Below are positions 20,090 through 24,241 of a stretch of DNA of 64,000 bases, one piece after another. The position numbers were made by a program, and so were the translations under genes. Positions within the stretch are counted from its first letter, which is position 1. Each line of letters starts with the position of its first letter. The DNA comes from Escherichia coli (GTDB lineage: Bacteria > Pseudomonadota > Gammaproteobacteria > Enterobacterales > Enterobacteriaceae). Under the pieces are notes generated by a model. It saw only the letters and a program-made list of their open reading frames with translations. It had not been told where the DNA came from and did not search any database. The stretch lies in the NCBI RefSeq assembly GCF_003334815.1, contig NZ_QOWO01000001.1; one strand, 5' to 3'.

Positions 20090-20145
20090 GCCCACCCCCA
20101 AGACATAAAAAAAGGGCCTAAAGCCCAGTTATTCTGTAGTCAGAT

Positions 20146-20171
20146 AACAAAAAACCCCGATAAATCGGGGC
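20146..20171 (-). terminator. Rho-independent terminator/attenuator between metY and rimP
   Basis: Minus strand GCCCCGAT-tt-ATCGGGG followed by TTTTTTGT; a second weaker GC hairpin plus T7 lies at 20107-20126. Confidence 0.7.
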
Positions 20172-20295
20172 TTTATATAACTGAACCCTATAACCGCAAC
20201 TGCGGTCTGGAGCACTTTCCAGAAGGATTTTTTCAAATCCCACTACGAAGGCCGAAGTCTTCACAGTATATTTGAAAAAGGACTCTAAGGGAAAG

Positions 20296-20372
<77 letters not shown>

Positions 20373-20704: not shown

Positions 20705-22063
<1,359 letters not shown>

Positions 22064-22070
22064 TTCGACA

Positions 22071-23696
22071 TCAACCCTGCCCTTCAGGGGTGGGGTTACC
22101 TTGCTTATCCTCTGTAAACTCCTTTCTGAGCATCACATAATCGAAAACATCATGGTTTGCATCCACAACCCGTGAGTCTCCTTTATAGTGTGCAATCACT
22201 TCCTCAAGCGTTTGCGGCTGTTCCGGCTTTGTTACCCCCATCCACGCATTAATAAGGTAATTATTGTAAGCTGTCGAAAAGATGTTGTTTTCCGTTGTGC
22301 GATCCACGCCATCCCCAAGAACGGGGCTATACCAGATAAACATCGGGACATGATATGCCTGCTGGCTAGCCTCCCTGCCTCCATGAAAATAGACGTTCTT
22401 CTTCGTAGGGTCACGTTCCAGGCCGTGGTCGGCAAAATACATGACCGAGGCGCGGCGATCTTTTAATAATTCAAAAACCTGACCTAGCAAACTATCTGTG
22501 TAATGAATGGAGTTGTCATAGCAGGCATCCTGATCGTCCTGCGGTTGAAACACGGCGCTGGATTGCGGATAGGCGCTACAAGCCGGTTCATGGCTTCCAT
22601 TTAAATGAAGAACAATCAGTTTCTTTTGCTGCGTATTTTGCTGTAATGCTTGCGATAAATGCGGCAACAACAATTCATCAAATCCTCTGACATAAACTGT
22701 TTCCATGGCGCGCATGGCGATACTGGTAACTGCTGTACCATTCTGCCGAAAAGCGGATTGCGAGCTTAGCCAGAAAGTCTGAAATCCTGCTTGATTAGCC
22801 ATATTAATAATGTTGTCGGGGTAATTATGAATGTCATGACTCAAAACAGAATCAGCAGTTAAAGAAAGGGGAACCGACAGCGCAGTGTAAGGTGCGCCGC
22901 TTATTGCTTGATTAAACAGTTTGATCTGTTTTCTTTGTGCTTCAACTTGCGGTGTCGTAGAGCGTGTATATCCATACAAAGACATATTGTCGACACGTAC
23001 AGACTCCCCCACAATCAACACGTAGGTATCAATACCTGTATCCCTGACTGATAATTGAAAATACGGCACCGTGTTTGCAATTGAGAGTAATCTTTGATGC
23101 TCTTTCGCTGCTAAAGCAAAATAGTTGAGATTGAAAAACGGCGTATAGGTAGCAAATCGCGACGCTAGTATATATGGACTGAACGCTTTTTTATTTTTTG
23201 CATCTTTATAAGCAAATTGACAAGCGGAAAATAAACTGCCCGAAATGACAATCAGCAATAATATTCCTGTCACTTTTTTTGTCGGCAAGGAAACATCATA
23301 TTTTATTATTACTGCCAAAAAAAGAAGGGATAAAAAAGCAAAGGCACATAGATAAGGGATATACATCCCCAGCATTTTGACAACTTCATCCGGATCACTC
23401 TGGAGCACACTAATCGCAAATCCATCATTGAAAGTTGTACCAAAGGTACACCATGAATAGAGGCTAATACTCATGTCTGCCGCAGTCAGTAACACAAATG
23501 GTGCGGCAACAAGCAGGCGAAGCGGAAGGGATGATATACGTTTTACAACCAGGATGGTCAGAACGAAGAACAGCAAGCGCTGAACCATATGCGCTCCGGA
23601 AGAAGCGACTAAGTTCGTAATACCAAAAACAATAACACAAAGATACAACAACCAATGAGATTTAAAAGTTCTAGCAAATTTGTTGAATACTGTCAT
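22071..23696 (-). CDS. yhbX: Putative phosphoethanolamine transferase YhbX (EptA/OpgE-like sulfatase-fold membrane protein)
   Basis: ORF track 22071..23729; start trimmed to MTVFNKFARTFKSHW (541 aa); N-terminal TM segments plus C-terminal sulfatase-like domain; visibly AT-rich. Confidence 0.85.
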   Translation of the reverse strand: MTVFNKFARTFKSHWLLYLCVIVFGITNLVASSGAHMVQRLLFFVLTILVVKRISSLPLRLLVAAPFVLLTAADMSISLYSWCTFGTTFNDGFAISVLQSDPDEVVKMLGMYIPYLCAFAFLSLLFLAVIIKYDVSLPTKKVTGILLLIVISGSLFSACQFAYKDAKNKKAFSPYILASRFATYTPFFNLNYFALAAKEHQRLLSIANTVPYFQLSVRDTGIDTYVLIVGESVRVDNMSLYGYTRSTTPQVEAQRKQIKLFNQAISGAPYTALSVPLSLTADSVLSHDIHNYPDNIINMANQAGFQTFWLSSQSAFRQNGTAVTSIAMRAMETVYVRGFDELLLPHLSQALQQNTQQKKLIVLHLNGSHEPACSAYPQSSAVFQPQDDQDACYDNSIHYTDSLLGQVFELLKDRRASVMYFADHGLERDPTKKNVYFHGGREASQQAYHVPMFIWYSPVLGDGVDRTTENNIFSTAYNNYLINAWMGVTKPEQPQTLEEVIAHYKGDSRVVDANHDVFDYVMLRKEFTEDKQGNPTPEGQG

Positions 23697-24116
23697 CCAG
23701 AAATCCAAGTTCACAACCAATATAAACAATTATCAACAATGTTTAATTTTATATCAGACATGTTTTTCAACTCTGATCCATATCAGAACGAAACACTGTT
23801 AGTTTTTTCTTTTTAAATGATGCGGCCATTGCGTTCTCAGTAATTAAATAACATTATCAATGCGTCTCTAAACATTACGCAGAACGTAGCCATCAGTCGT
23901 TATACTGACAGGAGCAGGATGGTTTATCGAGAAGTAAACATATCCGTATTCGTACCGGAACTGGAGTTGACACAATAAAGTGCCAATTATGTCAGTAGAA
24001 GGGAAAAATTTATAACTAAGGCGTACCGGCACCATCGTTTCAAGGTACCAGCTACGAGTAAAGCAACTGGACGAGATACAGATACCTGACAACCATTCCT
24101 CAGACCAGGACCAAAA

Positions 24117-24142
24117 CGAAAAAAGACGCTTTTCAGCGTCTC
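24117..24142 (-). terminator. Rho-independent terminator downstream of leuU (secG-leuU operon)
   Basis: Minus strand AGACGC-tgaaaa-GCGTCT followed by TTTTTTCG. Confidence 0.8.
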
Positions 24143-24154
24143 TTTTCTGGAATT

Positions 24155-24241
24155 TGGTACCGAGGACGGGACTTGAACCCGTAAGCCCTATTGGGCACTA
24201 CCACCTCAAGGTAGCGTGTCTACCAATTCCACCACCTCGGC
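24155..24241 (-). tRNA. leuU: tRNA-Leu (GAG anticodon)
   Basis: Reverse complement reads GCCGAGGTGGTGGAATTGGTAGACACGCTACCTTGAGGTGGTAGTGCCCAATAGGGCTTACGGGTTCAAGTCCCGTCCTCGGTACCA, 87 nt. Confidence 0.95.

Follow-up and report, generated by a model that had tools for sequence, protein, structure and literature searches.

The Escherichia coli gene yhbX looks foreign in its own chromosome: it is AT-rich, it stands beside the tRNA gene leuU, and the stretch upstream of it is AT-rich as well and carries no recognisable gene. How did it come to lie between argG and leuU, did the tRNA gene have a part in its arrival, and what does the upstream stretch do? We examined a window of 64,000 nucleotides (the whole stretch of DNA that was analysed), identical in sequence to positions 3297918-3361917 of E. 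coli MG1655. A preliminary description, which placed yhbX, its upstream region and the tRNA correctly, had read the base composition and the tRNA neighbour as marks of old horizontal acquisition. We consider it probable that positions 22065-24112 are an anciently acquired, AT-rich replacement cassette of 2 kb that comprises yhbX and its own control region. The cassette is a feature of an ordinary, already catalogued kind and contains no hidden gene. Its setting is as follows.

20720-22063, plus strand: argG, the left-hand neighbour on the window.
22065-24112, no strand assigned: the yhbX cassette, a 2,048-bp indel unit made up of yhbX and a 416-bp upstream spacer, delimited by the homology breaks against strains with the XRE allele.
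22071-23696, minus strand: yhbX coding sequence, from the annotation, 541 amino acids.
24118-24147, minus strand: Rho-independent terminator of the secG-leuU operon at the right cassette boundary, found by scan (fold −18.9 kcal/mol, z −5.7).
24155-24241, minus strand: leuU, tRNA-Leu(GAG), called by ARAGORN and Rfam, intact and outside the cassette.

The greater AT-richness of yhbX relative to its neighbours is borne out by GC content and codon adaptation, which mark the gene as clearly atypical. Among the 60 complete coding sequences in the window, yhbX has the lowest GC content (43.1%, against a mean of 52.1% with s.d. 2.8; z = −3.6), the lowest GC3 (42.1% versus 55.8%) and the minimum codon adaptation index (0.33, with the highly expressed genes of the window as reference). 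Synonymous codon usage deviates by 0.62 per codon, compared with 0.07-0.30 in the other genes longer than 1 kb, and GC content is low at each of the three codon positions. Upstream of the gene, 23697-24154 has a GC content of 38.2%, falling to a minimum of 32% in one 300-nt window.

Comparison with E. coli strains that carry other content between argG and leuU fixes the ends of the cassette. Homology of K-12 to the XRE-allele strains S40 and OkiPb01711 ends at 22064 and restarts at 24113, and the intervening 22065-24112 spans exactly the interval between the argG stop codon and the base of the leuU terminator. Presence of yhbX at this position is not uniform. The cassette is found in 5,166 of 5,426 complete E. 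coli genomes (95%), and in 237 of them (4%) a 1.2-kb gene for an XRE-family regulator takes its place, the two alleles being mutually exclusive in the slot. A contig scan with the exact leuU sequence returned 16 loci, none from a non-coli Escherichia (E. albertii, E. fergusonii and E. marmotae lie outside this sample), and yhbX was absent from the argG-leuU slot of every Salmonella and Citrobacter locus sampled. S. enterica diarizonae and two Citrobacter have an argG-leuU gap of just 180-210 bp, which holds the argG terminator and the leuU terminator and, in two of these three, REP-like sequence.

The XRE gene occupies the same slot in the same orientation in S. enterica (71% amino acid identity), C. 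koseri (73%) and a sister Escherichia (89%) with 92% flank identity to K-12, and divergence of the XRE cassette tracks divergence of the flanks. Because it sits in one and the same slot in all of these, the XRE gene appears to be the older occupant, and we infer that the yhbX cassette displaced this ancestral content (the argG terminator and the XRE-family gene) in the E. coli lineage. Searches of the K-12 spacer by blastn and tblastn for traces of the XRE gene, or of what Salmonella and Citrobacter have there, matched the leuU terminator only; the XRE protein matched nothing except HTH in defence-system and phage libraries. At 37-40% GC the XRE gene is AT-richer still than yhbX, and it is syntenic across three genera, so AT-richness alone is not diagnostic of foreign origin. 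Old acquisition is supported on other grounds: gene and spacer form one indel unit, the slot lacks yhbX in Salmonella and Citrobacter and holds another gene in 4% of E. coli, and the gene has no close relative outside E. coli.

Sequence comparison identifies YhbX as an inner-membrane phosphoethanolamine-transferase paralogue, the fifth in E. coli, in which a membrane domain at the N terminus precedes a periplasmic domain of sulfatase fold. The Pfam Sulfatase domain (PF00884) covers residues 224-467 (E = 3e-56), and alignment to full-length EptA (5fgn) covers residues 41-459. The GES, Thr, GSH, DHG and H-P motifs are retained against both EptA and EptC (5zzu), and appear in the EptA alignment as vGEs, ytAlsvP (with its Thr opposite the EptA Thr), GSHeP, aDHG and yHvPm; from established knowledge of EptA and MCR-1 we take these residues to be catalytic or zinc-binding. 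YhbX thus shares with EptA, EptB, EptC/CptA, OpgE and the MCR enzymes a multi-helix N-terminal membrane domain, a periplasmic PF00884 domain and the metal and nucleophile motifs. It differs from them in forming a small branch of its own, in having a chromosomal copy that only the E. coli lineage carries, and in matching the EptA, CptA and EptB NCBIfam models below every curated cut-off (156 bits versus 500 for the lipid A transferase domain model, 142 versus 404 for CptA), scores that place it in none of the named equivalogs. The branch comprises 121 clusters at 50% identity (E ≤ 1e-30), of which the closest, from Buttiauxella, Pectobacterium, Mixta and Microvirgula, are 41-48% identical and lie each in an unrelated gene context. 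No relative above 50% identity was found outside E. coli, bar a plasmid copy: this paralogue, 64.5% identical and with a GC content of 44% like that of yhbX, is on E. coli plasmid CP057032.1, and its upstream region has no similarity to the yhbX spacer. We take yhbX to be an isolated and mobile gene. Two seemingly divergent YhbX sequences were set aside, one (contig L032, gapless, 83.7% identical) that looks like chemically converted or error-laden reads and not a natural orthologue, the other (L033) a fragment from a long-read assembly full of frameshifts. YhbX had no match in defence-system and phage libraries, and no function is established for it (PMC4013655). On its relationships the enzyme most likely decorates an envelope glycolipid; our best guess for the acceptor is the LPS core, and the Pectobacterium relative is located within a waa LPS-core cluster.

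When the cassette arrived, and by what route, can be judged from the same comparisons. Four-fold-site diversity is 18% in yhbX, 16% in argG and 21% in glmM; since yhbX is as diverse at synonymous sites as the core genes that flank it, the acquisition is older than the sampled E. coli radiation. At codon positions 1 and 2, yhbX is 2-7 times more diverse than neighbouring core genes. The core-like synonymous diversity and the presence in 95% of E. coli could also be expected of a gene that was ancestral at this slot in Enterobacteriaceae and was repeatedly lost, its AT-richness reflecting membrane-protein composition and low expression; a low codon adaptation index could follow from low expression, and the syntenic XRE gene is itself an example of an AT-rich gene long established at this site. 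This history is unlikely, and we disfavour it: it is the mutually exclusive XRE gene that is syntenic across genera, the nearest relatives of YhbX, at most 48% identical and in unrelated contexts, fall far from the 80-95% expected of sister-genus orthologues, and the membrane-protein genes mtr, yhbE, mlaE and secG in the same window have 50-55% GC, whereas yhbX is low at all three codon positions. A second route, in which a phage- or ICE-type integrase put the yhbX DNA at leuU and left the spacer as a decayed integration module, draws on the adjoining tRNA gene and on a weak collinear resemblance of 24047-24028 and 23970-23952 in the spacer to, respectively, the anticodon arm and the T-arm/3′ end of leuU. 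That resemblance is no better than shuffled sequence (p = 0.13), which led us to reject a tRNA or att remnant, and neither the tRNA covariance model, taken to E ≤ 10, nor ARAGORN finds a tRNA-like match in the spacer. Across 22065-24112 in six frames there is no tyrosine or serine recombinase reading frame or remnant, yhbX being the single long reading frame, and we found neither a direct repeat flanking the cassette nor, at the junction remote from leuU, a duplicate of the tRNA 3′ end. The cassette begins at 24112, beyond the intact leuU terminator and not at the tRNA 3′ end, and the tRNA is not entered; the terminator is retained by every allele and by Salmonella and Citrobacter, and 3′ ends have been mapped experimentally beyond it (PMC2241853). 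A different gene is syntenic in the slot in three genera, which marks the site as an ordinary intergenic replacement point. Integration through leuU is thus highly improbable, and the tRNA adjacency, which the preliminary description had counted as a signature of acquisition, looks incidental. With the islands at pheV, selC and leuX the cassette has in common a tRNA neighbour, AT-rich DNA and the combination of atypical composition with variable presence among relatives; it differs in that it lacks an integrase and an att duplication and leaves the tRNA uninterrupted, and in the terminator that separates the tRNA from the insert. The replacement cassette would accordingly have arrived without site-specific integration at the tRNA.

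The rest of the cassette is the spacer, in which one reading frame deserves comment.

23697-24112, minus strand: non-coding upstream spacer of yhbX, assigned from conservation and published data as the putative promoter-leader region of the gene and a zone of Rho termination on both strands.
23868-24092, minus strand: 74-codon reading frame with a TTG start, judged non-coding from its substitution pattern and the absence of an NCBIfam match.

The spacer is single-copy and 96.6-100% identical among the full-length matches listed, and 5,169 genomes cover at least 80% of it. The view that 23697-24116 is AT-rich (38% GC) and devoid of a recognisable gene holds, with no annotated feature under 23697-24112 in 5,179 matching RefSeq E. 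coli genomes. A missed independent small RNA or small protein, encoded by the 74-codon frame or by one of 20 amino acids, would explain why the spacer varies at only 3.6% of sites when yhbX four-fold sites vary at 18% (Fisher p = 2e-8), why the longer frame is open in 7 of 7 strains behind a Shine-Dalgarno-like GAGGA, and why most of the spacer stands directly downstream of a binding peak for RNA polymerase. The purifying selection is, however, that of ordinary neighbouring promoter-bearing spacers (2.9-4.0% variable sites). For an RNA, the spacer gave only noise against Rfam at standard and permissive thresholds, no significant fold of the whole spacer on either strand (z = −1.5 and −0.8), no intrinsic terminator by scan and no Term-seq 3′ end in any sheet of the published table; the sequences, at least 96% alike, are too similar for covariation. 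The small RNA envisaged in the preliminary description is thus unsupported. For a protein, the 12 variable sites of the 74-codon frame split 6/1/5 over the first, second and third codon positions and 8 of them alter an amino acid, a pattern not biased to the third position like the 6/11/60 of yhbX; the 20-amino-acid frame is frameshifted in a B2 strain, and a cat cassette inserted mid-frame at 24008/24009 serves as a neutral linked marker. The 74-codon frame is judged non-coding on the substitution pattern and not for want of a ribosome-binding site: its earlier dismissal stands, but the remark that it has no convincing site does not, given the GAGGA 4 nt upstream of the TTG. Taken together, a hidden small gene is quite improbable.

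We favour reading the 416-bp spacer as the cassette's own non-coding control region, which would carry the promoter or promoters of yhbX, and two matches are candidates.

23729-23757, minus strand: sigma-70-like match CTGATA-17-GATAAT, 33 nt 5′ of the yhbX ATG, from a consensus scan; candidate proximal promoter.
24016-24044, minus strand: sigma-32-like motif CTTGAAA, 14 nt, CGCCTTAG (weak −10), from sequence, beneath a published RpoH-holoenzyme peak.

Matches of the first kind in the region are no more frequent than in shuffled sequence, which makes the proximal match a lead and not evidence. Genomic SELEX with RpoH holoenzyme in vitro placed a peak at 3319952 (older K-12 numbering) in the yhbX<<leuU spacer, with an intensity of 3.2 against a cut-off of 3.0; an inferred offset of about 1978, checked on two other rows of the same table, brings it to about 24013 in the window. 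This weak sigma-32-type site, some 320 nt upstream, is the sole candidate yhbX promoter with any experimental hint, from an in vitro peak barely over the cut-off, and it makes the earlier suggestion of promoters in 23697-24116 plausible. As for the H-NS silencing envisaged along with them, the cassette is 32-44% GC and has four TCGATAAATT-like sites (at most 2 mismatches) where the density across the window predicts about 2.6, with no enrichment.

In E. coli, Rho silences antisense transcription and that of horizontally acquired DNA, with bicyclomycin-sensitive regions reportedly described by Cardinale et al. in 2008 and Peters et al. in 2012. The silencing documented at the yhbX spacer is of this kind, Rho-dependent termination in published data; the Rho and Term-seq coordinates below are those of Adams et al. 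2021 (supplementary file 2) and were not computed here.

23795 (best coordinate), minus strand: Rho-dependent termination region in the sense of yhbX, 99 nt 5′ of the ATG; K-12 3321712(−), 'orphan', Adams et al. 2021.
23826 (best coordinate), plus strand: antisense Rho-dependent termination region that halts transcripts leaving yhbX for leuU; K-12 3321743(+), 'orphan', Adams et al. 2021.
22073-22097, plus strand: hairpin with an 11-bp stem in the 3′ coding end of yhbX that serves as the argG 3′ end (fold −17.3 kcal/mol).

Bicyclomycin raises the downstream read count at 3321712(−) from 114 to 552 (Rho score 5.0, with p = 6e-73) and at 3321743(+) from 22 to 76 (score 2.9, p = 2e-5; Adams et al. 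2021). Alongside these published rises, the upstream RNA is rich in C and poor in G, as expected of Rho regions: C/G is 1.2-1.6 in minus-strand RNA of 24075-23873, rut-like and just 5′ of the 23795 site, and 1.4-2.3 in plus-strand RNA of 23575-23830 by the 23826 site. The sense score derives from 800-nt windows of which the upstream one holds mostly leuU reads, so the transcripts ending at 23795 could start as leuU read-through or at a spacer promoter. Sense transcripts would mostly end through Rho about 100 nt before the yhbX start codon, by which, we propose, yhbX expression is kept low. Antisense transcripts from AT-rich yhbX would be halted before leuU-secG, with the spacer as an insulator, a role that conservation alone does not prove because the spacer is no more conserved than ordinary spacers.

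The other end of the cassette bears on argG. A canonical argG terminator is present in S40, which has the XRE allele, and in Salmonella and Citrobacter; in K-12 the hairpin within yhbX replaces it. The cassette would have taken out the canonical terminator, so that argG mRNA now ends at the hairpin, and the published argG Term-seq 3′ end at K-12 3320017(+) is window position 22100. Rho may act as a back-up, given a bicyclomycin-sensitive region at 3320019(+) where downstream reads rise from 44 to 212 (Adams et al. 2021). Bicyclomycin-sensitive regions, present in the spacer on either strand as well as at the convergent argG/yhbX junction and preceded by RNA in which C exceeds G, are what the locus shares with Rho silencing of foreign and antisense transcription; compared with such regions genome-wide it has nothing distinctive, and its three sites are 'orphan' or 'antisense' table entries that were not individually studied there.

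Two further readings are more elaborate: the spacer may act as a conditional attenuator and, independently of this, selection may have maintained yhbX and XRE in E. coli as alleles of a long-lived polymorphism. A stress-responsive promoter of sigma-32 type near 24016-24044 would yield a leader of about 320 nt, ended prematurely by Rho at about 23795, and yhbX, as a probable LPS-core phosphoethanolamine transferase, would be switched on only with Rho loading blocked, for example under heat or envelope stress, by an sRNA or by translation of the small leader reading frame. We hold both to be unlikely. As a replacement cassette, the yhbX unit has its parallels in the E. coli pan-genome, where small genomic islets and replacement alleles occupy intergenic hot spots: it shares with them an atypical composition, indel boundaries placed exactly where genes end, alternative cassettes that exclude one another and protein-level variation above that of neighbouring core genes. 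Unlike these it is near-fixed (95%), old and not strain-specific, and it is the minority allele that appears ancestral and is common to several genera.

These results account for the foreign look of a near-universal E. coli gene and, although their practical value is modest, illustrate how a tRNA neighbour and AT-rich sequence can be misleading signs, the AT-richer gene in this slot being the ancestral one. They also give an interpretation to three 'orphan' or 'antisense' Rho entries of a published genome-wide table. The argG-yhbX and leuU-yhbX spacers are both in use as 'neutral' sites for markers and synthetic operons; because these sites contain a transcript 3′ end and Rho zones, the insulation of inserted constructs could suffer. 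For the enzyme itself, the link of a YhbX relative to an LPS-core cluster offers a testable lead on YhbX, which is among the last phosphoethanolamine transferases of E. coli still to be characterised.

The window matches E. coli K-12 MG1655 positions 3297918–3361917 with 100% identity, and the features considered here and their alternative counterparts are as follows:

22071–23696 (−): yhbX (b3173), coding sequence
23697–24112: spacer upstream of yhbX, up to the secG–leuU terminator
24118–24147: secG–leuU terminator
24155–24241: leuU, the approach to the tRNA gene being part of the region
22061–22100: argG 3′ junction (counterpart in the XRE-allele E. coli sequence L002, 4065–4115)
L002 4248–5201; L034 5001–5960; L036 5001–5960; L038 1904–2857: XRE-family gene in E. 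coli (4%), S. enterica, C. koseri and a sister Escherichia

yhbX is the compositional outlier among the 60 complete coding sequences of the window, with the lowest GC content (43.1%; mean 52.1%, s.d. 2.8, z = −3.6), the lowest GC3 (42.1% versus 55.8%) and the lowest codon adaptation index (0.33, referenced to the window's own highly expressed genes), bearing out the preliminary description of an AT-rich gene. Synonymous-codon deviation per codon reaches 0.62, compared with 0.07–0.30 in all other window genes longer than 1 kb, and GC is low at codon positions 1, 2 and 3 alike. Membrane-protein composition does not explain these values, because nearby membrane-protein genes have 50–55% GC. GC content in the spacer is 38% and dips to 32% at its lowest. 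Elsewhere in the window, a rimP leader (RF01770, 102 bits) and the metY initiator tRNA at 20107–20207 (−) and 20296–20372 (−), upstream of rimP–nusA–infB, are ordinary for K-12.

Comparison of 5,426 complete E. coli genomes delimits the atypical segment precisely. At least 80% of it is present in 5,166 genomes, and in 237 it is absent and a 1.2-kb, 37% GC cassette occupies the slot, encoding a 317-aa XRE-family helix-turn-helix protein on the plus strand. Homology between the K-12 and XRE haplotypes stops at 22064, 1 base past the argG stop codon, and restarts at the base of the leuU terminator, at 24113; yhbX and the entire 416-bp upstream spacer, which is chromosomal and single-copy, therefore form one 2,048-bp indel unit. 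XRE-allele strains also differ from K-12 at 20–22 sites in the final 800 nt of argG (21264–22063), the rest of the flanks having mostly 0–2 differing sites per 200 nt, and 7% of sites in the final 364 nt of argG vary among yhbX-carrying strains too; the junction region bears linked, older divergence.

The same slot is occupied differently in related genera. In S. enterica subsp. diarizonae and two Citrobacter, argG and leuU lie just 180–210 bp apart, in a gap that contains the argG terminator hairpin, the leuU terminator and, in two of the three, REP-like sequence, and in which yhbX was not found. In Edwardsiella, Hafnia and Tenebrionibacter, rimP–nusA directly follows leuU with no intervening argG. 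The XRE gene has homologues of 71–73% identity in S. enterica, where they form a cluster of 340 sequences, and in C. koseri, and one of 89% identity in an Escherichia with flanks matching K-12 at 92%. In all three the gene has the same position and orientation between argG and leuU–secG, and cassette divergence tracks that of the flanks (cassette/flank identity 90%/92%, 74%/86–88% and 71%/86%). This synteny and scaling indicate that the XRE gene is an old resident of the slot, even though its GC content is 37–40% in every genus, so AT-richness alone would misclassify it. From these alignments we infer that the XRE gene was lost in some lineages and that the yhbX cassette took its place in the E. 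coli lineage. The XRE proteins (317–319 aa) have a large uncharacterised C-terminal part, library matches being limited to the helix-turn-helix; homologues at 50–57% identity occur across Proteobacteria, including Photorhabdus, Pseudomonas, Serratia and Acinetobacter.

Among 1.84 billion cluster representatives searched, no cluster beyond E. coli's own was more than 50% identical to YhbX and only 121 had E ≤ 1e-30. The next clusters, 41–48% identical, come from Buttiauxella, Pectobacterium, Mixta gaviniae and Microvirgula, and the gene contexts of YhbX relatives share nothing with one another or with E. coli: the Buttiauxella relative adjoins kdp, the Mixta relative is surrounded by unrelated genes, and that of Pectobacterium sp. 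B1J-3 (48% identical; L031 1–11179) lies within a waa LPS-core biosynthesis cluster containing heptosyltransferases, a WaaL-type ligase and WaaZ, where its immediate neighbours are a Kdo/WaaP-family kinase on one side and a family-8 glycosyltransferase on the other. The closest relative found away from the chromosomal locus is a 64.5% identical phosphoethanolamine transferase (L039 438–2099; 44% GC, like yhbX) on the 62-kb plasmid CP057032.1 of E. coli RHB40-C01, where it neighbours an MFS transporter and a GGDEF protein; its upstream DNA has no similarity to the yhbX spacer. Distant clusters, unrelated contexts and a plasmid copy together indicate that yhbX belongs to a small, patchy and partly plasmid-borne family. 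YhbX has been stated to be without known function (PMC4013655). PF00884 covers residues 224–467, and residues 41–459 align to full-length EptA, the match to EptC covering the catalytic domain, with the family Glu, Thr, His, Asp-His and His motifs retained in the alignment; the protein scores below every curated NCBIfam cut-off. As the Pectobacterium relative sits in a waa cluster, our best guess for the acceptor is the LPS core.

To date the cassette we used a 14-kb alignment of seven diverse strains, including O157, one labelled B2.3, and wildlife and livestock isolates. Four-fold degenerate sites vary to a similar extent in yhbX (18%), argG (16%) and glmM (21%), indicating that the cassette dates back as far as the sampled species diversity. 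At codon positions 1 and 2, 1.6% of yhbX sites vary versus 0.2–0.9% in neighbours, and protein-level variation above that of neighbouring core genes is as expected under weaker constraint. One of the seven strains carries a yhbX frameshift; the gene is a frameshifted pseudogene in bovine mastitis isolate BCE049 (L025/L043) and is broken by an IS4-like ISVsa5-family element in the laboratory strain ET12567, disruptions that fit a dispensable gene. Contig L032 (Logan SRR3359616), which runs from ftsH to argG and aligns to K-12 across 8,354 nt (83.7% identity, zero gaps) with many broken genes, was left out of comparisons and rejected as a natural relative, its appearance being that of reads with converted bases or heavy miscalling.

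Composition, replacement-cassette boundaries, absence from sampled Salmonella and Citrobacter, replacement in 237 E. coli genomes and the lack of close relatives outside E. coli support the proposed old horizontal acquisition of yhbX. Adjacency to a tRNA gene had been read as a further signature of acquisition, and this reading is not supported: the cassette contains no integrase ORF or fragment, no direct repeat flanks it, and leuU and its terminator are both intact, with secG–leuU 3′ ends mapped experimentally after the terminator at 24118–24147 (PMC2241853). Two short collinear resemblances to leuU in the spacer are no better than shuffles (p = 0.13), and a tRNA model found nothing there at E ≤ 10.

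The spacer carries no RefSeq annotation, and the small RNA suggested for it finds no support: there is no Rfam match, folding gives z-scores of −1.5 for the sense and −0.8 for the antisense strand, and neither an internal intrinsic terminator nor, in published tables, a Term-seq 3′ end was found (PMC7815308). A TTG-start ORF of 74 codons (23868–24092, −) is open in 7/7 strains and, contrary to the preliminary description, has an SD-like GAGGA. Its dismissal as a gene stands: its 12 variable sites fall on codon positions 1/2/3 as 6/1/5 (yhbX, 6/11/60), 8 change the amino acid, and no family matches. In one strain a frameshift breaks a 20-codon ORF. The spacer resembles neither the XRE cassette nor the Salmonella and Citrobacter spacers, and published strains carry a cat cassette at 24008/24009 as a neutral linked marker. 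Its variable sites (3.6%) lie far below those at yhbX four-fold sites (Fisher p = 2e-8) and resemble those of promoter-bearing neighbour spacers (metY–argG 2.9%, secG–glmM 4.0%, folP–ftsH 2.2%), the pattern of an ordinary functional intergenic region. Between yhbX and leuU, a sigma-32 holoenzyme peak was reported by genomic SELEX at 3319952 in older numbering (intensity 3.2, cut-off 3.0; PMC5493296), which our own coordinate conversion, checked on two other rows of the table, places near 24013. A candidate sigma-32-type motif lies at 24044–24016 on the yhbX-sense strand (CTTGAAA, 14 nt, weak −10 CGCCTTAG). A sigma-70-like match occurs at 23757–23729, such matches being no more frequent than in shuffles, and H-NS motif-like sites show no clear enrichment in the cassette (4, about 2.6 expected).

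Published 3′-end and Rho coordinates (Adams et al. 2021, supplementary tables; PMC7815308) place termination at the left edge of the cassette and in the spacer. The Term-seq argG 3′ end at 3320017(+), window 22100, lies within the 3′ coding end of yhbX, 3 nt past an 11-bp-stem hairpin (22073–22097, −17.3 kcal/mol), and 3320019(+) is bicyclomycin-sensitive (downstream reads rising from 44 to 212; PMC7815308). Another study lists argG–yhbX as a pair of convergent transcripts that overlap (PMC12288877). In the XRE allele, as in Salmonella and Citrobacter, argG is followed directly by a canonical terminator, a strong GC hairpin and T-run (z = −3.8), which K-12 appears to have lost to the cassette; K-12 argG ends after a hairpin of yhbX C-terminal codons, with Rho as back-up. 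In the spacer, an 'orphan' bicyclomycin-sensitive region at 3321712(−), window 23795 and 99 nt upstream of the yhbX ATG, shows downstream reads rising from 114 to 552 with bicyclomycin and a score of 5.0 (p = 6e-73), its upstream window being dominated by leuU reads, and 3321743(+), window 23826, is a second 'orphan' region, on the other strand (reads rising from 22 to 76, p = 2e-5; PMC7815308). C exceeds G in the RNA just upstream of both coordinates, with C/G maxima of 1.6 in sense RNA (24075–23873) and 2.3 in antisense RNA (23575–23830), stretches that look like Rho loading sites.

Our analysis supports a feature that is real but of an ordinary kind: a replacement cassette acquired horizontally long ago and now near-fixed, of which we infer that the non-coding part is yhbX's own control region. 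This region contains one or more weak RNA polymerase binding sites, represented by the in vitro SELEX peak, and Rho-dependent termination on both strands, which may keep yhbX expression low and shield the highly expressed secG–leuU operon against antisense transcription.
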